DNA of 64,000 nucleotides from a phage. The notes beneath the pieces were generated by a model. The model ran no database searches. It was given only the letters and a program-made list of their open reading frames with translations, and was not told where the DNA came from. The stretch lies in sequence record PZ049694.1, one strand, 5' to 3'. The position numbers and the translations under genes were made by a program. Below are positions 320 to 63,472 of the stretch, in pieces (the stretch's first letter is position 1; every line of letters starts with the position of its first letter).

Positions 320-841
320 TCAGTAACCATTATCCTGGCGTTCAAAGTTGTGTTGGTTTTTCAAGTAGTAAAGTTTAAAGATTTCTTCAGCAGAAAGACC
401 CAGACCTTGGAACATGTTCAGAACGAAGTGCAGAATATCAATCATCTCAAATTTAATTTCAAGCTGGTCTTCAGGAGACAGTTCATCGATACGACGATTA
501 CGATATTCAGCATGTTGTGCTTTCCACGGCTTCCATACACTGCTGGCGGCTTTTTCACCATTGCTCATACCACCAAGTGAAGTCAGCAGTTCACGGAATT
601 CATCATCAATATAATCTTTCTGATTACGCAGCCAATCAACAACGTCGCCTGCAGTGGCCAATTCATCAGGATGTTTGTTATGTTCAGGCTTGTCATTTGC
701 CAAACGAACCTGTAAAGATTTCTGCATATCAAGCATTACCTGAAGTGGGTCTTTATCTTCGTGAATCAGAGCATTAAAATAAGCTTCTTCTGCTTTATCA
801 ACACCAGAAATAAGTTGTGAACATTCGTTAAAGTGTGCCAT
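320..841 (-). CDS. 56: dCTP pyrophosphatase gp56 (MazG-like)
   Basis: ExxE (EFRE) and ExxD (EMID) MazG-type motifs; N-terminus MAHFNEC as remembered for T4 gp56; start moved to internal ATG at 841 (track start 856). Confidence 0.75.
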   Translation of the reverse strand: MAHFNECSQLISGVDKAEEAYFNALIHEDKDPLQVMLDMQKSLQVRLANDKPEHNKHPDELATAGDVVDWLRNQKDYIDDEFRELLTSLGGMSNGEKAASSVWKPWKAQHAEYRNRRIDELSPEDQLEIKFEMIDILHFVLNMFQGLGLSAEEIFKLYYLKNQHNFERQDNGY

Positions 842-3880: not shown

Positions 3881-4129
3881 TTATTCTTTTTCGCGAATAA
3901 TAATTACTTGTTGAGGCTGTAGAGCAGATTTCTTTTCGGCAACGATAGACCAAATTAAAGTTCCAATCCAACCAACCATCGTCCAGTTAAAGAGTAAAGA
4001 TACGAAGAAGATTGCTGTTGTGCTTTTTGTGCCACGAATAAGTGCGATTACCCAAGGCAACATGTAAATGATGATTGAACCAATACCTGCGATTAAAACT
4101 GCTACTGAACTAGCTACGAATAATTCCAT
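3881..4129 (-). CDS. small membrane protein (82 aa, two hydrophobic helices)
   Basis: Hydrophobic segments VAVLIAGIGSIIIYMLPWVIALI and IFFVSLLFNWTMVGWIGTLIWSIV. Confidence 0.55.
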   Translation of the reverse strand: MELFVASSVAVLIAGIGSIIIYMLPWVIALIRGTKSTTAIFFVSLLFNWTMVGWIGTLIWSIVAEKKSALQPQQVIIIREKE

Positions 4130-4190
4130 GTTAATTTCCTCTTGATTTGTTATGTTTATAGTATCTTGGTTTAACTTTAGTGTAAACCAA

Positions 4191-4559
4191 TTAATTAAAT
4201 TTGTTTAAACGTTCAATACACTGGATGTAGTTATTCGCGATTTGTTTCTGGGTAGGCTCTTTACCAGTTGTTTCAACATAGCGAATGAATGCGATTTCAG
4301 TAGCCTGTAAGCAATGTTCTTTAACGCGCTGTTCTTTTGACATAGCTACAGTATCAGAATCACGATAACGTTGAGCATGAGCATCAGCTTGAATCATTCG
4401 ATTACCTACAGTAACCGGGTCTTCCACTTCAACTTTAGGTTGTTCATACTGTTTAACATTCGGATTGTAAATCAGTTGGCCGACGTTATTAGGAATAAAG
4501 CCATGGGCACCACATCCTGTTAATCCAAATACCATTGCTAAAGCGATTAATTTTTTCAT
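4191..4559 (-). CDS. putative lipoprotein (122 aa)
   Basis: Signal peptide with lipobox LTGC. Confidence 0.6.
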   Translation of the reverse strand: MKKLIALAMVFGLTGCGAHGFIPNNVGQLIYNPNVKQYEQPKVEVEDPVTVGNRMIQADAHAQRYRDSDTVAMSKEQRVKEHCLQATEIAFIRYVETTGKEPTQKQIANNYIQCIERLNKFN

Positions 4560-7650: not shown

Positions 7651-8815
7651 CGAAATCTTCCATTTCGTCAAGGTCGTTTTCTATATCTGCTGCAGACGGA
7701 GCATCAGAAGTTTTAACCGGAACTTTAGTTGTTGCTTTGCAATTAATAAGGTCGTTAACAGCATCATCAACTTCTTTAATAGAAGAGATAGCACCTAGTT
7801 TATATTTAGTTTCAATTGCATCTCGGAAAGGTTTGTGTTTAAACAACGGTCCCCAGAATTCTACACAATCAGTAGCTTTAGCACGCCATGATTTTTCTTC
7901 ACGAATCATTTCACCTGTTTCTTCGTCAAGGAATTCTCGAGCATACCAACCAGCTTTAGGCTTAACCACAAAACCGATTTCAGTTGCCATTTCTAACAAG
8001 CCACTGAATGGGTCGATACCACCATCGAAATTAACCGTGATTGGGAAAGTAGATTTCTCTTTAACTGTACGAGATTTTTCTGCTTTCAACGTGAAGTCAT
8101 AACCGGTCAATTCTGTACCTTCTTTAACCTGACGTTTAGAGATAAAGAATACAGTGTTAGCAGAGTAAAGAATACCTGTACCACCACCCATAATCTCTTT
8201 AGGATACAATCCGCCAATTTCCATTGCTGTATGGTTAATTGCAACACACGGAATATCTTTAATAGTCAGATACGGTGTCACAATACGGAAAAGAGATTTA
8301 AGTGCCTTAGCACGAGACATATCACCTACGACTTTCTCGTTCAATGCATCTTCGGTTTCTTTCTTAGATGCAGTATTACCGATTGAATCGATAAAGATAA
8401 TAACTTTATCACCGCGTTCAATAGCGTCAAGCTGATTAGTCATATCAACTTTAAGTTGTTCGACAGATTGAATCGGAGTATGAACTACACGGTCTAAATC
8501 AACACCCATTGAACGAAAATAAGATTCTGAAGCACCAAATTCTGAATCATAGAACAAACAAATTGCATCTTTATATTTCTTCATATATGCTGCAACCATG
8601 GTCAGCCCAAACAACGTTTTAAAGTGTTTAGAAGGAGCAGCAAAAATAGTTAAGCCTGATTGCAACCCGGCATTCAGTGCACCACCTAATGCAATATTCA
8701 ACATCGGAATACGAGTAGGGACTTCATCACGATTATTAAACAGCTTAGACTTAGTCAAGTCTGCAGTCATTTTAGAAGTAGAAGCTTTAATCAGACGAGA
8801 TTTTAAATCAGACAT
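7643..8815 (-). CDS. uvsX: RecA-like recombinase UvsX
   Basis: 390 aa; N-terminus MSDLKSRLIKASTS and core motifs as remembered for T4 UvsX. Confidence 0.9.
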   Translation of the reverse strand: MSDLKSRLIKASTSKMTADLTKSKLFNNRDEVPTRIPMLNIALGGALNAGLQSGLTIFAAPSKHFKTLFGLTMVAAYMKKYKDAICLFYDSEFGASESYFRSMGVDLDRVVHTPIQSVEQLKVDMTNQLDAIERGDKVIIFIDSIGNTASKKETEDALNEKVVGDMSRAKALKSLFRIVTPYLTIKDIPCVAINHTAMEIGGLYPKEIMGGGTGILYSANTVFFISKRQVKEGTELTGYDFTLKAEKSRTVKEKSTFPITVNFDGGIDPFSGLLEMATEIGFVVKPKAGWYAREFLDEETGEMIREEKSWRAKATDCVEFWGPLFKHKPFRDAIETKYKLGAISSIKEVDDAVNDLINCKATTKVPVKTSDAPSAADIENDLDEMEDFDE

Positions 8816-8914
8816 TGTATTTTTCCATAGGCATCATTATATTTTACTCATGTTTAAAAGATAAGACGATTATATACTAAGGGTTATACAGCATTTAAAA
8901 CTTTAAACAGGCTC

Positions 8915-9463
8915 TTAACGAGCCCATTTGATAATTTCTGTAATCAAATAATTACGTTCGCTTGCATTAAATCCTATAACTTTGTTAGCACCGTCATGAT
9001 TAAGTAATTGATACGTTTGGATTTTGTTATGAATTGCAAACTCTTCAAAATATGAAATGACTGTATTAAAACCGAACGAAGACAAAGTAATAAGGTCGTC
9101 TTCAAAACTTTCAGTCATTTCGTTACGTGTTAAAATAATTGTGAACACATCATGGTTTTGGCAAAGACGAACATAATCCTGTTCATAAACGTCAAGAACC
9201 GAGTCCGCATCTTGTCGAATACGTCCATAAACCCAGTTACTAATATATCCACGGTCTAACAGATAAATCTTAGTAGGGTCTAAATAATTCAACATCGTTT
9301 CGAAACAGCCAACTTCATTTCGAGACTTAACATCGAAACGTCCATCAACTGTTCGTTTAGGGAAATCAATCTTTACATATCTTTCACTAATTTCCATTAT
9401 GTCATTAATGAAAGTTGTTTTACCAGCATTATCCGGGCCATCTACTAAAATAATTTTAGCCAT
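8915..9463 (-). CDS. P-loop kinase, thymidylate/dNMP-kinase-like
   Basis: 182 aa; Walker A GPDNAGKTT; LLDRGYISNWVYG resembles the TMP-kinase DRx..S..Y motif. Confidence 0.55.
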   Translation of the reverse strand: MAKIILVDGPDNAGKTTFINDIMEISERYVKIDFPKRTVDGRFDVKSRNEVGCFETMLNYLDPTKIYLLDRGYISNWVYGRIRQDADSVLDVYEQDYVRLCQNHDVFTIILTRNEMTESFEDDLITLSSFGFNTVISYFEEFAIHNKIQTYQLLNHDGANKVIGFNASERNYLITEIIKWAR

Positions 9464-9464
9464 T

Positions 9465-10364
9465 TTATTCCTCGATTACGACATCTTCATATTTAGGTAT
9501 ATTATACGGTGAAGAAATTAAAGCATTAAAGTAGATGAACTCACCAAGACCTGGATGGAATACTTCTTCAGGATTTTCGAAATATTGAATCTTCGGTCTT
9601 CCTTTAAGAATTTGATAGTACTCAGTTTTAGTTGGTTTAAAAATTCGAATCAGTGCTTCTTCAGGATACTTATTTCTGTCGAAGCTATTATTTGGATCGG
9701 TTATATAAAGCGGTTGACCTAATTGAATTGCGCATTCAACCACTTGTTCAAAACGATAACACGGGTCACTAATTCGAAATGGATGAAAAATACCATCTAG
9801 ATGAATAGGGGCCAAATCACCTACAAGACGCTGCATGATGGAAGGACGTATAACTTTCTGCGTTACGATAATCTTATTACCATCTGCACCAGCGTTAACC
9901 AGCACTTCCTTTTGACGTTTATTCAACACAGTAGTTTGAAGTGAACGATTAACCGACAACATATCGGTTTTTAAGAATTCGTCAATATAAAAACGTGGTT
10001 TATTAGGGTCTGCAGTGATATTGAAATTGAATTCCACATCAAAAGCGCCGTCATATCCAGTGATATCTGTGATTAGAAAATCACAATCATAATAAGCAAT
10101 TAATGAATCAACCACAAATTCATTTTCAGACCAGAAATATTTACGAGTGTTATACGCGTTATCTTTATACCATAATGGAACAAACTTAAATTCTGGGAAA
10201 AGACGTTCACATTCTTTAATATCAGATGCATTACGTGGATATGTAATCACATCACCCGGATTAGCACGGTGCAAATGAAGTTGGAAGTTGCCATCCTTAA
10301 GGATAGCATACTGTCCAGTTTCATAAGACCGCATACTCAAGATAGGTACGCGGAAAATAGCCAT
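9465..10364 (-). CDS. hypothetical protein (299 aa), candidate sugar transferase
   Basis: Occupies the slot where T4 has beta-gt; no recognisable motif; start overlaps the 42-like stop (TAATG). Confidence 0.5.
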   Translation of the reverse strand: MAIFRVPILSMRSYETGQYAILKDGNFQLHLHRANPGDVITYPRNASDIKECERLFPEFKFVPLWYKDNAYNTRKYFWSENEFVVDSLIAYYDCDFLITDITGYDGAFDVEFNFNITADPNKPRFYIDEFLKTDMLSVNRSLQTTVLNKRQKEVLVNAGADGNKIIVTQKVIRPSIMQRLVGDLAPIHLDGIFHPFRISDPCYRFEQVVECAIQLGQPLYITDPNNSFDRNKYPEEALIRIFKPTKTEYYQILKGRPKIQYFENPEEVFHPGLGEFIYFNALISSPYNIPKYEDVVIEE

Positions 10365-11080
10365 TAGTCAAGGAATCCTTTAACATAATCAAAATCACGT
10401 TCAAACACATGGGCACTTACCATGGTATGAGTATAATCACCAACTTCTACACCACATTCGTTAGCGATATAATGAAGTAATTTTCCTTGGAGATAAAAAT
10501 CTAACTGCATAACAACAGCACAGTTCTGAGAACGCATATGGCAGTGGGTATAAAGCTTACCATCACGAATATAATAAGTCACTGAGTCAGTACATGGATA
10601 TTCAAGCGTTTCGTCCGAATCAAGCAAAGCCTGATCTGAACTTTCAAGAATTTGAAACACAACTCTTCGTGAATTAGGTTTCTCTTTAAGTTCTTTTAGA
10701 AGAGCTGGTAATTGGGCCGCAATGCGAGGACCATAGAAAGTGTTGAAGTTCGCCGGCAAAACATCTGATTTTGGTTTAGAAATAAATTTAGCGACATTAG
10801 GATATGCCTTAAACGCTTCTTCTGCGTTGGTACCACCAGAAATCATAAACTTCCAGAAGTCTTCGGCATATTCATAAGAGATGCGGTTAATACGTGGGTC
10901 AGTCATTTTGAATGATGACGGAGTGTCAACAACTACTGTCATAGACCCAATTTCATTACAACGTCCAATACGAGAATCAGTTACGAATTCCGGGTTTTCT
11001 AAAATTTCACGATTGACTGCTTTAAATGCGGTTTGAAAATCTGCGGCTTTGATATATTTCATTGTGTTATGTTTTCCCAT
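10364..11080 (-). CDS. 42: dCMP hydroxymethylase-like enzyme (thymidylate synthase family)
   Basis: 238 aa; TS-family active-site region EYPCTDSVTYYIRDGKLYTHCHMRSQN; divergent from remembered T4 gp42. Confidence 0.7.
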   Translation of the reverse strand: MGKHNTMKYIKAADFQTAFKAVNREILENPEFVTDSRIGRCNEIGSMTVVVDTPSSFKMTDPRINRISYEYAEDFWKFMISGGTNAEEAFKAYPNVAKFISKPKSDVLPANFNTFYGPRIAAQLPALLKELKEKPNSRRVVFQILESSDQALLDSDETLEYPCTDSVTYYIRDGKLYTHCHMRSQNCAVVMQLDFYLQGKLLHYIANECGVEVGDYTHTMVSAHVFERDFDYVKGFLD

Positions 11081-11359
11081 GTTTACCTCAATACAATTTA
11101 TTATATACTCAATTCGTAAAGCTTATTTGAATTTCTTGACAATGTTGATATAACGTAAAGCTTCAGCATCGATACTTCCAAGAACACTATGAAGAAATGC
11201 ATCAGCGTAGTATTCCAATTGAACAGGTTTCTTTAATCACTTTAGCCGCTTTAGTTTCAAACAGGCCCATCAGGGCCTTTTTAAGAATTTGTTCATTAGT
11301 GTTCAGTTTCATAGTCAAAATCTCTTCATTAAGTTGGTGGTTAAAAGTTTTTCTAGAAA

Positions 11360-12520
11360 TCATTCCGGGTACCTCAAAGCGTCATCAGAGTTAGTTATAT
11401 CAATAATAGATATAGAGTTTTCTGCTAACCCGTTTTTAGATAATTGACGTTTATAATATCTTTCACAATATGTACACGTCGTCCCGCAGATTTCATTAGC
11501 ACAATCGAAATCTGGATGTCTGAACCACCTTTTTTCTAAAAAGCCATCTAACAAAGAGGTTTCAATATTTACTGTATGTGAAAACTCTGTCTCATTTTCA
11601 AGAGTGAAAATGGTCTCTAAAGGCTTCCACAGTTCTAACAAATTACCTTCAAACTTTTCAGAAGCGTATGCTTCAAGAACTTTCAAAATGTAGTCTGTGC
11701 TACCTGTACGTCCTGAAACTTTGAATTGAGTGATACCAATATCATTATAAAGTTTCAAATCTTGAGGACGAACAAAACGAGTTCTCAACCAGTTAAATGG
11801 ATCTGTATCACGAGCTTTAATACAATGTTGCATTGGATATCCATTTAAAGATTTGGCATCATCTACTGTAACATCGGTGCTATGGAAAATATAGCAAGAG
11901 TCACGATAACTACAATGTGTTGTATACCCTTTACCAGCATTAGAACAGAACTCATTTACAAGAACTTCAAATATTATATTGTTCTTATTACAAAACTCTG
12001 CTGCACGCTTCAGGAAAGAAACTGAACGGTTTTTATGAATTCCGCAGCAGACCTTTTTGATATTATATTGGTCATGCAAGTATTTGATTTGAGTTACAGC
12101 ATCGACATGTAGAATTGTTGAAACTTCAATCTCAATGTCTTTATTGACTTCACGAACAATTTCCATAACAACAGGGTTAGCGATAGTAATACGCCATACG
12201 CCTATTGACCAAAGATACTGAACATAATCCTGAATAGCTTTCTTCTTCCACTCAACTAGTTCTCTTTTTGAACCAGGATTTATCGTGTTGAGTGTATAGT
12301 TAAAGCAAATACCTAATTCGTTACAACGTTTAACGTAATCTTCTAACATCTTTTTGTCAACGTCAGGAAGCCTAAAATCAGGTCTGGCTGCTACAAAAGC
12401 CATTTCTCTTGTAGAGCCGTATACTTCATTTATCAAGCTATTAGGATAAGTTTTATTGAGCTCTACGATTTTATCAAGAAGAGCTAAATCAAAATTCGTT
12501 CCGATTTTAAAAGTATTCAT
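11360..12520 (-). CDS. Cys-rich enzyme of unknown function (386 aa)
   Basis: 13 or more Cys; C-terminal CANEICGTTCTYCERYY contains a C-x3-C-x2-C pattern; possible Fe-S or metal site. Confidence 0.5.
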   Translation of the reverse strand: MNTFKIGTNFDLALLDKIVELNKTYPNSLINEVYGSTREMAFVAARPDFRLPDVDKKMLEDYVKRCNELGICFNYTLNTINPGSKRELVEWKKKAIQDYVQYLWSIGVWRITIANPVVMEIVREVNKDIEIEVSTILHVDAVTQIKYLHDQYNIKKVCCGIHKNRSVSFLKRAAEFCNKNNIIFEVLVNEFCSNAGKGYTTHCSYRDSCYIFHSTDVTVDDAKSLNGYPMQHCIKARDTDPFNWLRTRFVRPQDLKLYNDIGITQFKVSGRTGSTDYILKVLEAYASEKFEGNLLELWKPLETIFTLENETEFSHTVNIETSLLDGFLEKRWFRHPDFDCANEICGTTCTYCERYYKRQLSKNGLAENSISIIDITNSDDALRYPE

Positions 12521-12577
12521 TTTTTTACATCTCGCGTTAATTGATGCGATGGTTTTTTGCAGGTCTTACTTAAATTA

Positions 12578-12979
12578 TTATAGATTCGGTTTATATGATT
12601 TAAATGTTTCGAATTCGCCTTTATTCATAAGAGCTTTGAATTCGTCAGGACGCATAGCTTTGTCGTCGATAATCCAATCATATACTGGTTTATGTGTTAG
12701 CAAATTATGGTACTTCAAGCCAATGTTTGCCAAGTTCTGAATCAGACTTGGGAGAATGTCAATTGCTATACGACCAGGACCTACTGACTTCATACCGCGA
12801 GCAGTGTAAAGCGTTATTGTATGCCCTGCATCATACAGGGCATTAATGGCAGACACCATTTCGACGTCTGGTTTGAAGTTCACGTAATCACGATTGTTAT
12901 TCCACTCTGTTATACAATCATCGACATCAAAACAAAGATTAAGCATGTTTTCTACACGGTGCATTAGATTCGTTCCCAT
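12578..12979 (-). CDS. HAD-superfamily phosphatase (small, 133 aa)
   Basis: Motif I FDVDDCIT (DxDxT); overlaps the upstream gene by 16 nt. Confidence 0.65.
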   Translation of the reverse strand: MGTNLMHRVENMLNLCFDVDDCITEWNNNRDYVNFKPDVEMVSAINALYDAGHTITLYTARGMKSVGPGRIAIDILPSLIQNLANIGLKYHNLLTHKPVYDWIIDDKAMRPDEFKALMNKGEFETFKSYKPNL

Positions 12980-14649
12980 TGATGAGTGATATCGCCACCG
13001 ATTGGACGATAAGAAACACCAGTTTCTTTATCAGTTAGTACCCATTTACCAGGATTTTTTGTAATCAGAGTAGCCGTTACAGGTTCTGCTACGTCATAAC
13101 TAATAGAGCCGTCTTGAAGTACACGGCCCATGTTACGTAATTGTTTAGTCAGAAGTTCCATACCTTTATAATATGCGGCTACCGCTTTAAGTGGATTATT
13201 CTTGAAATAACCACCTAATGCAATCCAGATAATTGCAACTGCCAAATGATGATACTCGTTAAACGAACTCATCTTTCCATATTTGTAAACTAATGGATTG
13301 ATGTTAATAGTCACATTACAAGTTGTTTCATCAATAGTAAACTGTCCCCAGGTCGGATTAGCGTTGAATTCATCATACCCTGAAACAGCATAAAGCACTT
13401 TAGCTTCGTCATACAATTTTGGTCCGTAAATCTTGGTTTCGCCAAAATATCCACGAGGGTCGATAAACTTGACTTCGCCATTATCAGTAATCATAGTATT
13501 ACTGAAGTTCGGGTCACCATGAATAACAGAGTACTGTCCCTGAGAACGGTTATGATAACGAATAAGGTGTTCTAAAGCTTGTTTCAGCATTGGCTTCAGA
13601 CGCCCAATCTTAGTGTAGTTCACATGTGTGATTTTACCAAATGAATCAATCAATGGTTGAATACTTTCACAACGATCAATAACTTTCGTATAGAACTCTT
13701 TAGTGAAATCACGACGAACAGTTTCAGGACTTACAAAATAAGTGTCTGTGCTGAATTTCAGTGCATCTAAAATTGCATCAACAATTTGTGGACGAGCAAG
13801 ACTTGATTTGGATTTAATATATTCAAATGCCGGCTTACCTTTAATGCGTTCCATTTCAAAGTTATTTTCATTAACAGAAACTAACTGAGGAACTGAATCT
13901 GATTTCACTTTAAGATACCATGAAATCTCATCTTTCTGAAGAGCTCGACCCTGTTCGGTTAATGCGAATTTAGTTACAGTTTCTTCACCGATTTCAACTG
14001 CATTAAAACTACGATTAAGTTCACGAACTTCATGAGCTTTTTCAAGTTTAGGCATATCACCTAAATCAATTAGATTCATAAGCTCTGATTTATTGAATGC
14101 ACCGCTGTAAAGGAATTCTACGAAATCACGTCCTTTGCAGTATTCATGAATTTCCTCATCAGTAGAACCCATATAGAATTCCCAGTCTTTGAACTGATAA
14201 ATTCCTACAACATTACCACCTGTTGAACCTACGTTAGTGATATTTTCACCGTCGAAATTATATCGACATTCGTCGCCCTTAACATAGATTGCGTTAACAT
14301 TCCAAGACCATGAACCAAAATCGGGAATAATATCACACCAGTTAACAATTACATTATGGCCGTTTAAATCTTTGTGTAATTTAGCAAGAGCATAAGCAGA
14401 ACCATACGCTTCATCAACTGTACGAATAGTCACATTGAACCCTTCTTGCTCACAATAAGCTCGAACAGTTTCAGCAAATTTTGAATGAACTACTACAATA
14501 ATTTCGTCTGCGCCAAGGTCAGAATAAATTGTATACAAATTGCTCAGAATAGTGTCTTGTTTATAGTTAACAAGCACCTTAGGAATATGATGCGTTATTG
14601 GATACAAACGAGTTGCCAGTCCAGCACCAAGAATAACAGCTTTTTTCAT
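12964..14649 (-). CDS. bifunctional sugar-1-phosphate nucleotidyltransferase / APH-type kinase
   Basis: N-terminal ILGAGLATRL (GxGxR of NDP-sugar pyrophosphorylases such as LicC, MurU, RmlA); C-terminal VIHGDPNFSN Brenner motif and FIDPRG (APH/choline-kinase fold). Confidence 0.75.
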   Translation of the reverse strand: MKKAVILGAGLATRLYPITHHIPKVLVNYKQDTILSNLYTIYSDLGADEIIVVVHSKFAETVRAYCEQEGFNVTIRTVDEAYGSAYALAKLHKDLNGHNVIVNWCDIIPDFGSWSWNVNAIYVKGDECRYNFDGENITNVGSTGGNVVGIYQFKDWEFYMGSTDEEIHEYCKGRDFVEFLYSGAFNKSELMNLIDLGDMPKLEKAHEVRELNRSFNAVEIGEETVTKFALTEQGRALQKDEISWYLKVKSDSVPQLVSVNENNFEMERIKGKPAFEYIKSKSSLARPQIVDAILDALKFSTDTYFVSPETVRRDFTKEFYTKVIDRCESIQPLIDSFGKITHVNYTKIGRLKPMLKQALEHLIRYHNRSQGQYSVIHGDPNFSNTMITDNGEVKFIDPRGYFGETKIYGPKLYDEAKVLYAVSGYDEFNANPTWGQFTIDETTCNVTININPLVYKYGKMSSFNEYHHLAVAIIWIALGGYFKNNPLKAVAAYYKGMELLTKQLRNMGRVLQDGSISYDVAEPVTATLITKNPGKWVLTDKETGVSYRPIGGDITHQWERI

Positions 14650-14690
14650 GTTGTGGTCCTCATTGGTAAGTAGGAGTATTGTACACTATT

Positions 14691-14834
14691 CTAGTTAAAG
14701 CATTCATACTTTGCTTGTAGTCCAATCATAATCCATCCAATTACAAGTGTCGGAATCATTACTGGAGCCGTTAAGCTCCAGTAGATAGTCATGACAAGCA
14801 TCAATAGTAAAAGTCCTATTGTTATTGCTTTCAT
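14691..14834 (-). CDS. small hydrophobic protein (47 aa)
   Basis: MKAITIGLLLLMLVMTIYWSLTAPVMIPTLVIGWIMIGLQAKYECFN; ATG overlaps the SIS gene stop (ATGA); below track cutoff. Confidence 0.35.
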   Translation of the reverse strand: MKAITIGLLLLMLVMTIYWSLTAPVMIPTLVIGWIMIGLQAKYECFN

Positions 14835-15466
14835 TGTTCGCCTCGTAACATGGCACCTAGTGCACCGCCAGGGTGGAACTTAAGGAAGTCATTAGAGGTA
14901 AATCCACGTTCAGACGAAAGGTTGATAGCAAACGTATCGATAAGCGCTAACAACAATGTAGTGGACATGGTCGGAGCCAGAGAATTCTCATCGACCTCTA
15001 CCGCGATGCCTGTACAGAAAGAGTAATCAAAAAGGGCTTCATTTTCTTGTGGAATGTCTGGGTTACAATGCAACAGAATTTGTTTGACGTTCGGACGAAT
15101 CATTTTAAGATGCTTAGCCACGCCTATCATTTCTTCAGTTTTACCAGAACGACTAATATGAATCAACACATCATTAGGCGCAATGAATCCTGCATCACCG
15201 TGAGAATAATGCCCAGTGTTCAAGTACATACTCGGGATACCGAGTGAAGCAAATGTCTCAGAAGCTTTAGTTGCAATATTAGCATTCTTACCAACACCTG
15301 TAATAATTACTCGGCTTTCATAATTACTAAGTCCCGGACGTCGAAGAGTTTCTAGAATAGCATTATAACGAGCAGGGTTTTGACTAATTACTTTGGCCAT
15401 AGCGGCCAAAGAAGAAGCTTGTTTTATGATTGCGTCAATAGCGATAGTAATAGGAGTAGTTTTCAT
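14831..15466 (-). CDS. SIS-domain sugar-phosphate isomerase, arabinose-5-phosphate isomerase-like (no CBS domains)
   Basis: 211 aa; SIS motif ITGVGKNANIA; C-terminal FLKFHPGGALG matches the KdsD/GutQ/KpsF signature. Confidence 0.7.
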   Translation of the reverse strand: MKTTPITIAIDAIIKQASSLAAMAKVISQNPARYNAILETLRRPGLSNYESRVIITGVGKNANIATKASETFASLGIPSMYLNTGHYSHGDAGFIAPNDVLIHISRSGKTEEMIGVAKHLKMIRPNVKQILLHCNPDIPQENEALFDYSFCTGIAVEVDENSLAPTMSTTLLLALIDTFAINLSSERGFTSNDFLKFHPGGALGAMLRGEQ

Positions 15467-15506
15467 ATTTCTCTCATTTAATTAGTTTACCGTCCATGTC
15501 ATTATA

Positions 15507-23614: not shown

Positions 23615-23843
23615 TACACGCTTCAGCCATTTTAAGAATAGAGCCAGGAGTATCGTTGTCCATTATATTAAAGCTAAATTCAATAGCCCAGTCTGTGCAG
23701 ACATGAACTGCTTTAACTTCATTGCCTTCAACGCGTAATGGCTCAATCCAATACTTGATAGTGTTCTCGAATCCATCATCATCTTTAACGTCCATTTCAA
23801 CTTCAAGCCTGAGTCCGGCATTGTTAAATTCATCTAAAGTCAT
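23586..23843 (-). CDS. hypothetical protein (85 aa)
   Basis: Translationally coupled ORF between 47 and 46. Confidence 0.5.
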   Translation of the reverse strand: MTLDEFNNAGLRLEVEMDVKDDDGFENTIKYWIEPLRVEGNEVKAVHVCTDWAIEFSFNIMDNDTPGSILKMAEACIEDAYNDED

Positions 23844-24859
23844 TGTGTTGCCTCAATATAAAGTTCGTTGGAATATTTGACCAGCGCTTCTCTGTCTTCG
23901 TCTGAGATATCTGGAATCGCGTCAATATATTCTTTAATGATATCTTGAAGTGATTTAATCTCGATTTCCTGGTCGTCATCAGATTCAACACTGTTATCAA
24001 CTTTAGAAACCATACGAAGAGAGTGAACTACTTTTTCAAGTTCAGATTCAAACTTAGTCAACTCTGAATCAATTTCTGATACTATAACACGTACGGCTAG
24101 ATTAGTATAATCAGAATAATTGATTTTGCCTTTAAACGGATAAGTGATTCGTCGATGCCATGTTGTTTCATTAGGAATAAATTCCATACGTTCAACATCA
24201 GTGTCAAATACCCAGAATCCGCGCGGGTCGTTTTCATCACCTGCAGTAAGGGTCCATGGTGTCCCAATATATTTAACGTTAGCAGCTTCAGAGATTGTGT
24301 GGAAGTGGCCGGACCAGACTTGTTTATAGGTCTTTAAGAAATCAGGTTCAAGCCCATGAGACTTCATTCCTTTATAGAAATAAAAGCCGTTCAGTTCCCA
24401 GTGACCAACACAATACGCGGCAGAAGAAGTTTTGATGTGCTCTAAGATTTCACCTGTATTTTCTTCACACATCCATGGAACGATATCAATCAGACATCCG
24501 TCAAAATCTACAGTAGTTGGATGCTCGTAAATAGTAAAGTTTTCAAATTGAGTTAACAATTCAGAAACAGTGTTAGGTGTTATTGTATTCTTGAACGCCA
24601 TGTCATGGTTTCCTATCGTGACATGAACGTGAATGCCTGCTTTAGAAATCATATCAACGATTTCACGATTGAATTCCATTGTACGATGTGTTATTGCTTT
24701 ACGGACGTCAAACCAATCACCGTACTGAATCCAAGTTTTAATCCCGTGTTTCTTAGAGTATTCAATTGCTTGACGAATACCATCACGTTGAATATCTTGA
24801 ACCCATGGGTCGTCTTGTTTGACTCCGATATGGAAGTCGCCTAAGTGCAAAATTTTCAT
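23840..24859 (-). CDS. 47: recombination endonuclease subunit gp47 (Mre11/SbcD-like)
   Basis: 339 aa; calcineurin-like phosphoesterase motifs LHLGDFH, GNHD, GHWE. Confidence 0.9.
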   Translation of the reverse strand: MKILHLGDFHIGVKQDDPWVQDIQRDGIRQAIEYSKKHGIKTWIQYGDWFDVRKAITHRTMEFNREIVDMISKAGIHVHVTIGNHDMAFKNTITPNTVSELLTQFENFTIYEHPTTVDFDGCLIDIVPWMCEENTGEILEHIKTSSAAYCVGHWELNGFYFYKGMKSHGLEPDFLKTYKQVWSGHFHTISEAANVKYIGTPWTLTAGDENDPRGFWVFDTDVERMEFIPNETTWHRRITYPFKGKINYSDYTNLAVRVIVSEIDSELTKFESELEKVVHSLRMVSKVDNSVESDDDQEIEIKSLQDIIKEYIDAIPDISDEDREALVKYSNELYIEATQ

Positions 24860-24903
24860 ATTATTTCCTCATTAGTTAATTCATTCTATCATCCGTTTAT
24901 AAA

Positions 24904-24931
24904 GCAAAAAAAGGAACTCCGAAGAGTTCCT
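24904..24931 (-). terminator. rho-independent terminator
   Basis: ggaactc-cgaa-gagttcc hairpin (UUCG loop on minus RNA) followed on the minus strand by U7. Confidence 0.65.
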
Positions 24932-25103
24932 ATCCACATAGTACACCGTACAGAGGCTCATTTGAACTTTTAAATCGAATGGGCTTGTATGTAATAGTTC
25001 CTTCGGCTTTAGCTTTATCATAAGACTCTTTAAAACGTCTCATTCTTTCTGCTTTGCCTTTACGGATTTTATCGAAATTTTCAGAGGTCAGGTCGTTCGT
25101 CAT
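24930..25103 (-). CDS. small hypothetical protein (57 aa)
   Basis: ORF MTNDLTSENFDKIRKGKAERMRRFKESYDKAKAEG... with GAGGTG SD; stop abuts the terminator; below track cutoff. Confidence 0.35.
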   Translation of the reverse strand: MTNDLTSENFDKIRKGKAERMRRFKESYDKAKAEGTITYKPIRFKSSNEPLYGVLCG

Positions 25104-25142
25104 GCATAATCACCTCTCAGAAAATACCTAAATCGATTTCTC

Positions 25143-25364
25143 TCATCGTTTCCACCATTTCTTAACTTGAAATGAATCAACCCACACGAGTTGTTTTGGG
25201 TCGGCCTTTACAATAGGCGGACAAATTTCTGTAATAGAACCGTCGTGATATTCCTTTTCAGAAATTTTAACACAAAGAGGACCTCCCAATTTAAGGGTGA
25301 ACCCTGCGTTCAGCTTCAGACGTTTAAACTTTGTTTGAACTAGCGCCATTAATGATGTCCTCAA
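25143..25364 (-). CDS. hypothetical protein (73 aa)
   Basis: Minus-strand ORF; start may be internal. Confidence 0.4.
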   Translation of the reverse strand: MRTSLMALVQTKFKRLKLNAGFTLKLGGPLCVKISEKEYHDGSITEICPPIVKADPKQLVWVDSFQVKKWWKR

Positions 25365-25647
25365 TAGCCTGACGAGTAGTAACCCACTGGATTTTAATTA
25401 ACTTGTCATTATATGGTTGTCGTAGAATATCCCGAGATTTCTTAATAGCATATTCGTAAGCTTCGAAGTTGTTTTGAATTGCTGCTTCTTGAGCGTGAGC
25501 ATAAAGACGGTTTAGTTCAAAACGATTCTTTTTAAGAATCTTTTCGGATTTTTTACGTGCTTCAGCTTCATTTTTCTTTTGGATTTCTTGTAGCATTTTA
25601 GCTACTGCATCTTCTGCTTCTTTATTTTCAATAATCTCGGTAGTCAT
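25324..25647 (-). CDS. hypothetical protein (107 aa), coiled-coil rich
   Basis: Minus-strand ORF in the 47-to-55 interval where T4 carries alpha-gt. Confidence 0.5.
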   Translation of the reverse strand: MTTEIIENKEAEDAVAKMLQEIQKKNEAEARKKSEKILKKNRFELNRLYAHAQEAAIQNNFEAYEYAIKKSRDILRQPYNDKLIKIQWVTTRQAIEDIINGASSNKV

Positions 25648-29840: not shown

Positions 29841-30311
29841 TTAATCATGTTTCCACACCCCATCGGTATTTGACCAAAGTCGCTGATTATCTGATCCTCG
29901 CCACAGTTTTTTGGTCGGAAGATTTTTCTCATACTTCCCATCAATAATAACATCAACATATTTAAGCATTTCTAGTTGTTTAATATCTTCAAACTTATAT
30001 CCTGTCCACAACCAAATGCTTTTATTGGGATAAAGATTTTTTACTGTTTGAGCAATGCAATGAACAACATCTCTGTTATCGGGATAGAGAGGGTCTCCTC
30101 CAGTTATAGTTAATCCTTCTATATAATCATTATTCAAACATTCAATTAATTGCTCTAGTGTTTCACCCGTGAATGGAATACCATTTCTAGCGTTCCATGT
30201 TGATTTATTATAACACCCTTCGCATTTATGCAAACAACCTGTAACGAAAAGAACGACCCTGCAACCAGGGCCATTCACAAAATCGCAAGGATAAAATCTA
30301 TCATAATTCAT
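29841..30311 (-). CDS. nrdG: anaerobic ribonucleotide reductase activating protein NrdG (radical SAM)
   Basis: 156 aa; CLHKCEGC radical-SAM cysteine triad; ATGA overlap with nrdD. Confidence 0.9.
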   Translation of the reverse strand: MNYDRFYPCDFVNGPGCRVVLFVTGCLHKCEGCYNKSTWNARNGIPFTGETLEQLIECLNNDYIEGLTITGGDPLYPDNRDVVHCIAQTVKNLYPNKSIWLWTGYKFEDIKQLEMLKYVDVIIDGKYEKNLPTKKLWRGSDNQRLWSNTDGVWKHD

Positions 30312-32125
30312 TGGTGTTTAACCCTATGCATGATTTCTTTATTTTTGCCGAGATTAAATCCACGTTCATTCGGATTTCCAAGATAACCGCATGTTCTTCT
30401 TATTGTGTTCATCTTTTTAGGATCAGTTTCTCCACAAATAGAACAAACAAATCCGTTTTCGGTAGGAGTCATTTCATGGGTACTTCCACACGTAAAACAT
30501 TTATCTACTGGCATATTAACACCAAAATAATCTAAATGTTGCGCAGCATAATCCCAGACGGCCTCAAGACCTTTTAAGTTATTTTTCATATCAGGAAGTT
30601 CAACATAAGAAATGTGTCCACCGGTCGCAATGAAATGATATGGGGCTTCGCGAGAAATCTTTTCAAACGGAGTAATATTTTCTTCTACTGAAACGTGGAA
30701 ACTATTAGTGTACCAGCCTTTATCAGTAACATCTTTTACACTTCCATATTTTTCGGTATCAAGTTTACAGAAGCGATAGCACAGGTTTTCAGCAGGTGTA
30801 GAATACAAACTAAAAGCAAAACCGGTTCTTTCAGTCCACTGCTTAAGACGAGCATTCATTTTAGTTAAAATTTCCTGTCCAATATCACGTCCGACAAGAA
30901 TATTCAATTCGTGAATACCAATGTATCCTAAAGACACTGAACTTCTACCGTTTTTAAATAACTCAATTATATCATCATCAGGTTTAAGACGAACCCCGAA
31001 TGCACCTTCTTGGTAAAGAATAGGAGCAACAGTAGCTTTAACTCCTTTTAAGGAACTAATTCTACACATCAAAGCTTCAAAACACAGATCCATTCGTTCA
31101 TTAAATAGCTCAACAAATTTCTGTTCATTGAATTGTGTTCCAATATAAGAATCTAACGCAATACGAGGAAGATTCAGTGTTACAACACCGAGATTATTAC
31201 GTCCATCAAGAATTTCATTACCGGTCGAATCTTTCCATACGCTCAAGAAACTACGGCAACCCATTGGAGAAACAGGAATAGATGAACCAGTGATAGCTTT
31301 ATTATTCTTAACTGAAATAATATCAGGATACATTCTTTTGCTTGCACATTCTAATGCAAGTTGTTTAATATCATAGTTCGGGTCGTCTTTATAAAGATTG
31401 ACACCCTCTTCAACGAACATAACAAGTTTAGGGAAAATAGGAGTTATCCCATCGCGACCAAGACCTTTAATGCGGTTTTTAAGAATTGCCTTCTGAATAA
31501 TTCGTTCAGTCCAGTCAGTTCCAGTACCAAATGTAATTGTTACAAAAGGCGTTTGTCCGTTTGAACTAAAGAGAGTATTTACTTCGTATTCATACGCTTG
31601 GAATGCATCGTATACGTCTTTTTCTGTTTTAGATTGGGCATAATTCAACGCATCAGCGATTTGCCATTTTTCTGCATCCTCAATATGTTTTGCATAGGTG
31701 CGTTTAACATAAGGAGAAAGTACTTTATCTACATTAGCAAAAGTCGTTCCGCCGTACTGATGTGAAGCAACTTGTGCGGTAATTTGTGCCATAATTGCAG
31801 TAGCAACGCCAATCGATTTAGGCGTTTCAATTTGAGCATTACCTAGCTTAAATCCGTTTTCAAGCATTCCTTTTAAATCTACTAAACAACAATTAGTAAA
31901 TGGAAGAGCAGGGGAATAATCAATATCATGGAAATGGATAATTCCGCTTTCATGTGCTTTCATAATAAAAGACGGGACCATATTTTTGGCAATGTGCTTA
32001 GACACAATACCAGCCATAAGGTCCCGTTGAGTTGGAAAAACACGAGAATCTTTATTAGCATTCTCGTTTAAAAGGTCTTTATTAGTTTTATGAATCAATC
32101 CTTCAATTTCTTTTTCAATTGTCAT
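30308..32125 (-). CDS. nrdD: anaerobic ribonucleoside-triphosphate reductase NrdD
   Basis: 605 aa, continuous (no intron); C-terminal glycyl-radical region RRTCGYLG and Zn-ribbon cysteines. Confidence 0.95.
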   Translation of the reverse strand: MTIEKEIEGLIHKTNKDLLNENANKDSRVFPTQRDLMAGIVSKHIAKNMVPSFIMKAHESGIIHFHDIDYSPALPFTNCCLVDLKGMLENGFKLGNAQIETPKSIGVATAIMAQITAQVASHQYGGTTFANVDKVLSPYVKRTYAKHIEDAEKWQIADALNYAQSKTEKDVYDAFQAYEYEVNTLFSSNGQTPFVTITFGTGTDWTERIIQKAILKNRIKGLGRDGITPIFPKLVMFVEEGVNLYKDDPNYDIKQLALECASKRMYPDIISVKNNKAITGSSIPVSPMGCRSFLSVWKDSTGNEILDGRNNLGVVTLNLPRIALDSYIGTQFNEQKFVELFNERMDLCFEALMCRISSLKGVKATVAPILYQEGAFGVRLKPDDDIIELFKNGRSSVSLGYIGIHELNILVGRDIGQEILTKMNARLKQWTERTGFAFSLYSTPAENLCYRFCKLDTEKYGSVKDVTDKGWYTNSFHVSVEENITPFEKISREAPYHFIATGGHISYVELPDMKNNLKGLEAVWDYAAQHLDYFGVNMPVDKCFTCGSTHEMTPTENGFVCSICGETDPKKMNTIRRTCGYLGNPNERGFNLGKNKEIMHRVKHQ

Positions 32126-62737: not shown

Positions 62738-63472
62738 TTACCTTAAGATTGTTTCAATTTTAGAATAAAGCTCTTCTAAAGAGCCGTCGTTTGTAATAAC
62801 TAAATCGCCTTCTTCAATAGGCAACCCAGCTTCTGTAATATGTTTATCGGTGGATTCCGTACCAGAGCGAACCACATGAATAACTGTAGCACCCATCGCT
62901 CTAGCGGTTTCCATTTCATGGACTTGACGTGTATCGGTTACGACATAGTAATCGAAATCACTTCCAATATAATCCATATAGTTTAATGCAAAAAGTTTAA
63001 CCCAATACATACGGTCAAATAAATTAACGACAACATCCGTACCGAGGGCTTGCATAAGACGGCGGATTGACCATGTGTCGTTGATATTATTTATAGCTTC
63101 ACGCAGGGCTTCATATGGTTTAATATCTAGATACGAATATCCACCTTCTAACGATGATAATACTTTAACATTATTAATTGGTAAATATTGACTTTGCAAA
63201 TAAATTAGCGCTTCTTCCAATAATTCAATAACATCCAACTTATTGAGATTTAATGGTGTTTCACGGTCGTATCCAATGCCTTCAAAGTATTCGTATTTCA
63301 ACTCTGTGAATACATCAGGGTTTTCAGCATGCCTACGTCCCCAGGCTATTGCTAGAGCGTCTTTAATCGGATATGCCAATTGGTATTTTACGGATTTAAA
63401 GTTTGAATTGATGTAATCGGCAGTGGTGTCTTTACCACTACGTTTGATGCCGCTTAAAAAGATTAGCTCCAT
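62738..63472 (-). CDS. 1: deoxynucleoside monophosphate kinase gp1
   Basis: 244 aa; P-loop LSGIKRSGKDTTAD; RRLMQALGTDVVVN and MYWVKLFAL as remembered for T4 gp1. Confidence 0.9.
   Translation of the reverse strand: MELIFLSGIKRSGKDTTADYINSNFKSVKYQLAYPIKDALAIAWGRRHAENPDVFTELKYEYFEGIGYDRETPLNLNKLDVIELLEEALIYLQSQYLPINNVKVLSSLEGGYSYLDIKPYEALREAINNINDTWSIRRLMQALGTDVVVNLFDRMYWVKLFALNYMDYIGSDFDYYVVTDTRQVHEMETARAMGATVIHVVRSGTESTDKHITEAGLPIEEGDLVITNDGSLEELYSKIETILR

Follow-up and report, generated by a model that had tools for sequence, protein, structure and literature searches.

The gene in the gene 42 slot is a strong outlier among T4 homologs

The window analyzed here, 64,000 nucleotides of phage sequence record PZ049694.1, is collinear with positions 16.2-75.8 kb of phage T4. 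In the slot held by gene 42 in T4, the window carries a gene of the thymidylate synthase (TS) superfamily, which a first-pass annotation, made from the sequence alone, had labeled a 42-like hydroxymethylase. The gene and its candidate promoter are as follows.

10364..11080, minus strand: TS-family open reading frame (ORF) of 238 aa (PF00303), very probably a 5-hydroxy-deoxycytidine monophosphate (5hodCMP) synthase; equivalent of RB69 gp48 (ORF048c) and HY126 XAN60475 (PDB 9IQC)
11100..11123, minus strand: possible T4-type middle promoter, picked out by eye only, with a MotA-box-like AGCTTTA (11123..11117), an 11-nt spacer and TATAAT (11105..11100)

The ORF begins with ATG, 5 nt downstream of a GAGG Shine-Dalgarno sequence (11089..11086), and its TAA stop overlaps by one base the ATG of arabinosyltransferase 1, which follows it (TAATG). 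The candidate promoter was judged against the T4 middle-promoter consensus, and a scan of 8800-15600 for sigma-70 promoters and terminators gave counts not above those of shuffled sequence.

The first-pass annotation had called this enzyme clearly divergent from T4 gp42, and this was borne out. On alignment by BLASTP to T4 gp42 (NP_049659, taken from NC_000866), identity was not high but only 24.8% over 218 aa (E 3e-13). We ranked this value among the 65 minus-strand ORFs of at least 80 aa whose T4 match spans at least 70% of the ORF. Median protein identity to T4 in this syntenic set was 71.7% (quartiles 53.8 and 82.8), and the product of 10364..11080 was the lowest of the 65, so that the orthologue-level similarity expected of a gp42-type hydroxymethylase is lacking. 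The annotation had also described regA, nrdC, 49 and denV as near-identical to their T4 counterparts; they are very similar (78.9%, 92.0%, 88.9% and 90.5% protein identity, respectively) but not near-identical. Set against these named genes and against the flanking uvsX (67.7%) and gp43 (61.7%), the window enzyme is a real outlier. It is also the only TS-family gene in the window, since tblastn searches with T4 gp42 and E. coli ThyA matched no other position.

Profile searches placed the protein in the TS superfamily. The Pfam PF00303 match (E 2.3e-15) covered only residues 122-235, while the same profile covers residues 55-226 of T4 gp42, and phrog_160 matched across the full length (E 7e-47).

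The dCMP-binding residues are kept and the folate contacts are lost

Signature residues were compared in an alignment of the window protein with E. coli ThyA (PDB-checked sequence), T4 gp42 and the homologs from RB69, HY126, DLP3, Thanatos-2 and Rhizobium phage AF3, and in a second alignment of 120 database representatives down to 53% identity. The catalytic cysteine (ThyA C146) is C163, in the motif EYPCT; ThyA L143 corresponds to the acidic E160; R126/R127 and R166/S167 of ThyA correspond to R138/R139 and R183/S184; and ThyA N177, which is D179 in T4 gp42, corresponds to D194. Each of these is invariant (120/120), and C163 and D194 are the equivalents of the gp42-type Cys148 and Asp179. ThyA D169 is replaced by N186 (motif MRSQN), with Asn in 120/120 sequences, whereas ThyA and T4 gp42 (D171) keep Asp, and the folate-contact residues W80, W83 and G173 of ThyA are Ala, Ile and Val. 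In TS, the pterin-binding D169 and W80 both take part in folate binding; the folate-binding Asp and the Trp80-type contact of gp42-type enzymes are thus both missing from the window protein (N186 and Ala). The position of the general acid/base gp42 Glu60 (ThyA E58) was Phe or Trp in two alignments and Glu in a four-sequence one, the N-terminal half being too divergent to align reliably.

These aligned residues indicate that the TS nucleophile, the phosphate-binding machinery and the cytosine-selecting Asp are kept and that the cofactor pocket is remodeled, and this predicted remodeling matches the published folate-to-flavin switch. A different pyrimidine substrate, which the first-pass annotation had offered as one cause of the divergence, is contradicted by the Asp at the position that specifies dCMP or deoxyuridine monophosphate (dUMP), where D194 stands as D179 does in T4 gp42. 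Both enzymes act on dCMP, and what differs is the cofactor and the product. The two have in common the TS fold, the genomic slot, the catalytic Cys, Asp in place of ThyA N177 and an acidic residue in place of L143. T4 gp42 uses methylene-tetrahydrofolate (CH2-THF) where the window branch, having lost the Asp169 and Trp80 equivalents, uses flavin and O2, and T4 gp42 makes 5-CH2OH where the window branch makes 5-OH. Because the product is 5-OH and not 5-CH2OH, an ether bond joins the sugar to the ring itself.

Outside phages, the closest PDB entries by sequence are the cytidine monophosphate (CMP) 5-hydroxymethylase MilA (PDB 5JNH, 5B6D), which aligns with residues 14-237 of the window protein (E 4e-11), and bacterial ThyA, which aligns over the C-terminal half (E about 1e-11). 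Unlike the window protein, both are folate-dependent one-carbon transferases with Asp169, and MilA acts on the ribonucleotide CMP.

The window enzyme is a Mosigvirus 5hodCMP synthase

At the DNA level, identity to many Mosigvirus (RB69-like) genomes is 98.6%. The window protein is 100% identical to several Mosigvirus proteins, 99.2% to RB69 gp48, 97.9% to the HY126 enzyme and about 69% to gp80 of Acinetobacter phage DLP3. The RB69, HY126 and DLP3 proteins share its length, its C163/E160/N186/D194 signature and its gene neighborhood. The HY126 protein is residue for residue the sequence of PDB 9IQC and 9IR2, and PDB 9IQU is a 234-aa version.

With O2 and a flavin, RB69 gp48 turns dCMP into 5-hydroxy-dCMP, whose 5-OH is then arabinosylated (NAR 2026, PMC13326640). 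In that work, expression of gp48 with a phage deoxynucleoside monophosphate (dNMP) kinase in E. coli placed 5-hydroxydeoxycytidine (5hodC) in DNA, with a shift from 243 Da to 245 Da under 18O2, and the gp48 preparation was yellow and released loosely bound flavin mononucleotide (FMN). In RB69 DNA, C was found to be replaced by mono- and di-arabinosylated 5-hydroxycytosine (5hoC), whose sugar is joined straight to C5 by an ether bond. The authors proposed that Asn in place of ThyA Asp169 is diagnostic of this branch, and 9/9 tested D169N homologs made 5hodC (PMC13326640). For a flavin-bound structure of the HY126 homolog and for in-vitro reconstitution, the authors refer to He et al. (Nat Chem Biol 2026).

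We conclude, with a probability of roughly 95%, that 10364..11080 encodes the Mosigvirus 5hodCMP synthase, a TS-superfamily enzyme that occupies the T4 gene 42 slot and uses flavin and O2 instead of methylene-tetrahydrofolate. The enzyme is not a drifted hydroxymethylase, and the label "hydroxymethylase" does not fit a protein that carries the D169N signature and is 99.2% identical to an RB69 enzyme making 5-hydroxy-dCMP. As far as the sequence can be read, nothing in it speaks against this identity. Three caveats go with it. The allele differs from RB69 gp48 at 2/238 residues (D85N and A107V, in which we see no functional significance), and the activity is known from the RB69 protein; the flavin-bound structure of He et al. 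is cited here second-hand, through PMC13326640, and the PDB molecule name of 9iqc is only "Thymidylate synthase"; and Thomas et al. 2018 (PMC6024577) read RB69 DNA as containing arabinosyl-hydroxymethylcytosine, a reading superseded by the nuclear magnetic resonance (NMR) and mass spectrometry (MS) of the 2026 paper (PMC13326640).

It is highly improbable that the gene is instead a fast-evolving true orthologue of T4 gp42, folate-dependent and making 5-hydroxymethyl-dCMP (5hmdCMP) that is then arabinosylated, as in the 2018 model of RB69. Such an orthologue would be expected in this slot, between uvsX/glycosyltransferase and gene 43, and would have the catalytic Cys, the dCMP-specifying Asp and the acidic residue at the L143 position that the two proteins have in common; several GenBank records are annotated "dCMP hydroxymethylase", and Thomas et al. 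2018 (PMC6024577) proposed arabinosyl-hydroxymethylcytosine. However, product analysis by liquid chromatography-MS and NMR, 18O2 labeling and FMN binding of the 99%-identical RB69 gp48 all show hydroxylation (PMC13326640). The pterin-binding Asp169 is moreover Asn throughout the family, the W80/W83 equivalents are lost, and 24.8% identity stands beside neighboring genes at 60-99%. An ordinary TS converting dUMP to deoxythymidine monophosphate, to which the best Pfam, NCBIfam and PHROG matches, the name of PDB 9iqc and many database records all point, is scarcely credible given the changes at ThyA N177 (to Asp, for cytosine specificity), L143 (to Glu) and D169 (to Asn), a best NCBIfam score of 68 bits against its cut-off of 174.5 (every equivalog cut-off being at least 108 bits), a Pfam match limited to the C-terminal half, and the position of the canonical T4 td gene, outside the region syntenic with the window.

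Because the RB69-type 5hodCMP synthase has been described, the explanation of the divergence in the gene 42 slot is already in the literature, and the finding is real but known. The database labels "thymidylate synthase" and "dCMP hydroxymethylase" for this gene are wrong. DNA with arabinosyl-5-hydroxycytosine, as in Mosigvirus, affects the outcomes of restriction, CRISPR and type IV defense and the design of phage therapy, consequences already covered by the 2025-2026 literature.

The synthase gene lies within an arabinosylation cluster

The first-pass annotation had linked the enzyme to a new sugar pathway, and this link held: the gene sits inside an arabinosylation cluster, its stop overlaps the start of arabinosyltransferase 1, and its product provides the acceptor hydroxyl. 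It is embedded among genes for a kinase, arabinosyltransferase 1, a U32-family protein, a HAD-like phosphatase, a nucleotidyltransferase/kinase and an arabinose-5-phosphate (A5P) isomerase, and two further genes of the pathway lie near the ends of the window.

320..841, minus strand: dCTPase (T4 gp56 homolog), 71.7% identical to T4 gp56 over 173 aa; role from T4 annotation and PMC13326640
8915..9463, minus strand: thymidylate-kinase-like nucleotide kinase (RB69 gp45); phrog_761, E 6e-45; Table 1 of PMC13326640
9465..10364, minus strand: DNA arabinosyltransferase 1 (AraT1; RB69 gp46:47), a single ORF of 299 aa; phrog_3891, E 3e-156
11360..12520, minus strand: U32-family putative Fe-S protein (RB69 gp50); PF01136 Peptidase_U32, E 6.3e-11, 42.4 bits against a gathering threshold of 22.4
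12578..12979, minus strand: HAD-like sugar phosphatase (RB69 gp51; HY126 AfhF equivalent); phrog_1238; PMC13326640
12964..14649, minus strand: bifunctional sugar-1-phosphate nucleotidyltransferase/sugar kinase (RB69 gp52:53, fused; HY126 AfhE equivalent); Pfam NTP_transferase E 8e-10, weak kinase matches; phrog_4098; PMC13326640
14831..15466, minus strand: A5P isomerase (RB69 gp55); phrog_5670, E 4e-116; JK36 and HY126 annotation
62738..63472, minus strand: dNMP kinase (T4 gp1 homolog), 62.7% identical to T4 gp1 over 244 aa

In the pathway that we propose, the phage dCTPase would yield dCMP and remove dCTP from the pool. As throughout the TS family, Cys163 of the synthase would add to C6 of its substrate, with Asp194 selecting cytosine; the activated C5 would then attack the flavin C4a-(hydro)peroxide formed from reduced FMN and O2, and elimination of the Cys would free 5-hydroxy-dCMP. 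The phage dNMP kinase and the host nucleoside diphosphate kinase would convert this to 5hodCTP, and the polymerase would put 5hoC in for every C. Finally, the downstream arabinosyltransferase and a second one elsewhere in the genome would attach arabinose from UDP-arabinose through an ether bond to the 5-O, with the donor presumably supplied by the A5P isomerase, the kinase/nucleotidyltransferase and the HAD phosphatase. We infer the C5/C6 chemistry and the source of reduced flavin by analogy with TS and flavin-monooxygenase chemistry; the product, the oxygen source and the flavin are carried over from the published RB69 protein on the strength of sequence identity, signature residues and gene context, which make them probable here.

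RB69 dNMP kinase gp159 phosphorylates 5hodCMP (PMC13326640). The identity of the window dNMP kinase to T4 gp1 is below the window median, and this low value fits adaptation to 5hodCMP rather than 5hmdCMP.

ORF046/047 and ORF052/053, which are split in the RB69 GenBank record, are single intact ORFs in the window (9465..10364, 299 aa; 12964..14649, 561 aa). The intact ORFs support the published view that sequencing errors account for the RB69 splits; RB69 gp46:47 is remarked on as a fused ORF in PMC13326640.

No ORF matching T4 alpha-gt or beta-gt was found in the syntenic window. The kinase and the arabinosyltransferase fill the beta-gt slot, only about 460 bp remain in the alpha-gt slot that separates gene 47 from a-gt.4, and the imm and imm.1 homologs lie near sp/61.x and not beside gene 42 as in T4. 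The regions concerned are the following.

3881..4559, minus strand: region bearing on the imm, alpha-gt and beta-gt comparison
23840..25647: region bearing on the same comparison
8815..10364: region bearing on the same comparison

A U32-family gene in the cluster has homologs linked to chorismate mutase

The cluster also encodes the U32-family protein, the counterpart of RB69 gp50. RlhA, which depends on Fe-S clusters and prephenate, makes 5-hydroxycytidine (ho5C2501) in 23S rRNA (PMC5727448), TrhP is described as making 5-hydroxyuridine (ho5U34) in tRNA (PMC6599085), and UbiU/UbiV stand in for flavin monooxygenases when ubiquinone is made anaerobically, taking the oxygen from prephenate (PMC10990095).

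The phage protein resembles these enzymes in its Peptidase_U32 domain, in a Cys cluster that aligns with the RlhA/TrhP motif and in the linkage of its gene to prephenate supply. Its invariant cysteines in 120 homologs are C158, C192, C203, C209, C233 and the C-terminal C340/C345/C349/C352. For UbiU/V and RlhA, the four-Cys Fe-S motif is CX6CX15CX3-4C. Three of its four positions as found in RlhA/TrhP align with C192, C203 and C209, the second being Tyr in the phage protein, and C158 and C233 could substitute. To our knowledge, every U32 protein of known function takes part in O2-independent, prephenate-dependent hydroxylation. The phage protein differs from RlhA, TrhP and UbiU/UbiV in having the extra invariant CX4CX3CX2C at its C terminus and in its putative substrate, a deoxynucleotide or DNA. 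Pairwise similarity to the E. coli proteins is likewise not significant: BLASTP against E. coli RlhA or UbiU gave no significant alignment, a PDB phmmer search gave no match, and NCBIfam gave only a sub-threshold UbiU match.

The 222 phage records with a U32 homolog of at least 80% identity are without exception Straboviridae of Enterobacterales or Shewanella; the loci of Acinetobacter DLP3, Dhakavirus JS10 and Rhizobium AF3 lack the gene. A strict tie between U32 presence and host oxygen lifestyle was considered and holds only partially, the gene being absent in Acinetobacter and Rhizobium phages but also in Dhakaviruses of E. coli.

Between the U32 gene and the synthase gene lies a small ORF slot, which is frameshifted in the window.

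11123..11363, minus strand: remnant of RB69 ORF049c (79 aa in RB69 and JK36), frameshifted by one extra A, with a 53-aa ORF left at 11202..11363; phrog_8601 and DNA alignment

The extra A falls in an A-run (AAAGAAACC as against AAAG-AACC in RB69 and JK36), and HY126 has two insertions; the frameshift could reflect decay of the gene or a sequencing error in the homopolymer. Kanagawavirus, Klebsiella, Serratia, Yersinia, Edwardsiella and other phages have a chorismate mutase gene in this slot. The one in Kanagawavirus Entb_45, a 79-aa ORF flanked by the U32 and TS-like genes, was identified as a chorismate mutase by Pfam CM_2 (E 2.4e-10, a score that passes the gathering threshold). Homologs of the Entb_45 type are present in 51 phage records and in every case listed neighbor the TS-like gene, U32 or both, and a chorismate mutase gene adjoins U32 in 13/15 Straboviridae-type loci. 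In Thanatos-2, the U32 and chorismate mutase genes are still adjacent though displaced from the TS-like gene. We considered whether the RB69 ORF049c-type ORF is itself a diverged chorismate mutase and rejected this, as it gave no Pfam or NCBIfam match, no BLASTP similarity and no match to a profile of phage chorismate mutases.

The glycosyltransferase travels with either hydroxylase candidate

About 250 metagenomic U32 homologs at 48-58% identity have the same invariant Cys set. We examined 28 U32 loci outside the Straboviridae, for which only 8-10 kb per side was read. In about 17 of the 28, U32 adjoins or lies within about 3 kb of a homolog of the window arabinosyltransferase; these glycosyltransferases align with it end to end at 24-27% identity (E about 1e-13) and belong to the same PHROG 3891. 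At nine of the 28 loci, U32 is accompanied by a homolog of the kinase/nucleotidyltransferase (29% identity, E 3e-50). Two loci (L020 and L043) have a TAGT-like DNA glycosyltransferase and UDP-galactopyranose mutase, the former identified in L020 by Pfam (TAGT, E 4e-8) and in L043 as a homolog of the L020 protein. Six contigs of 194-294 kb (jumbo phage) have the order U32, chorismate mutase, glycosyltransferase, kinase/nucleotidyltransferase, with a Pfam chorismate mutase match of E 1e-14 in the three of them that were scanned, and two loci have a DAHP synthase gene directly after U32 (NCBIfam E about 1e-70, against 1e-17 for KDO8P synthase).

Within 8-10 kb of the U32-only loci, there was no gene of the 5hodCMP-synthase type. 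The one TS-family gene in the 28 loci, in L037, was rejected as a hydroxylase because it has the canonical ThyA signature. Across whole IMG/VR U32-only contigs, a pattern scan, which can miss divergent genes, found no such gene either, and none of these contigs is among the 41 found with a 5hodCMP-synthase profile. An AraT1-like glycosyltransferase adjoins the TS-like gene in 37 of those 41 IMG/VR loci, and only 13 of the 37 also have U32. AraT1-type genes thus stand beside the TS-like gene only (Acinetobacter, Dhakavirus, Pootjesviridae and environmental phages), beside both TS-like and U32 genes (enterobacterial and Shewanella Straboviridae), or beside U32 only (about 17 metagenomic phage loci, including the 194-294 kb contigs). 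This is the pattern expected of two non-homologous enzymes doing one job.

At six loci (L015, 7447..9086; L019, 7504..9083; L038; L042; L044; L056), a dCMP deaminase gene either immediately precedes the U32 homolog or lies no more than about 10 kb from it, and genes for thymidylate kinase, a UDG-family protein and DnaE are also beside the U32 homolog in L015 and L019. The dCMP deaminase neighborhood hints at a pathway for 5-hydroxy-uracil or another hydroxypyrimidine in those large uncultured phages.

U32 may act as a second, O2-independent hydroxylase

These observations bear on whether the 5hodCMP synthase is the sole hydroxylase of the pathway. On balance, we lean slightly toward a reading that complements the synthase identification, in which U32 would supply 5-hydroxy-pyrimidine nucleotides under anoxia and the TS-like enzyme would do so only with O2. 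With odds a shade better than even, the locus may thus encode two non-homologous routes to a glycosylated 5-hydroxypyrimidine, one through the O2- and flavin-using TS-like enzyme and one through a prephenate-dependent U32 acting on dCMP or on DNA cytosine. The linkage of U32 to chorismate mutase or DAHP synthase and to AraT1-type genes in unrelated phages with no TS-like hydroxylase nearby argues for this reading. So does the following pair of genes (29841..32125), which encode an anaerobic ribonucleotide reductase and thus equip the phage for anoxic replication.

29841..30311: nrdG
30308..32125, minus strand: nrdD

Under anoxia, making an obligatory base by a step that needs O2 would hold up replication, and the two-route scheme would parallel UbiI/H/F and UbiU/V, TrhO and TrhP, and phage NrdAB and NrdDG. 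However, Dhakavirus phages of E. coli do without the U32 gene, the Mosigvirus slot next to U32 has no recognizable chorismate mutase but an unrelated 79-aa ORF that is frameshifted in the window, and RB69 gp50 is labeled only "sugar or heterocycle reductase" in PMC13326640, where U32, chorismate and anaerobiosis go unmentioned. We found no proposal of a U32 phage pyrimidine hydroxylase in the accessible literature, which left out He et al. 2026 and Mahler et al. 2025. If true, the two-route reading would add a way of hydroxylating DNA bases that needs prephenate and no oxygen, account for anaerobic replication by gut phages in which every cytosine is replaced, and give a function to a widespread U32 subfamily of large uncultured phages.

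The nrdD gene shows an unrelated feature. It is 94-96% identical to that of T4 in nucleotide sequence over both exons and 98.8% identical in protein over 425 aa, far above the window background. The T4 group I intron with I-TevII is missing from it, and no mobC separates nrdG from nrdD. The similarity suggests a recent exchange between the Tequatrovirus and Mosigvirus lineages, or very strong constraint.

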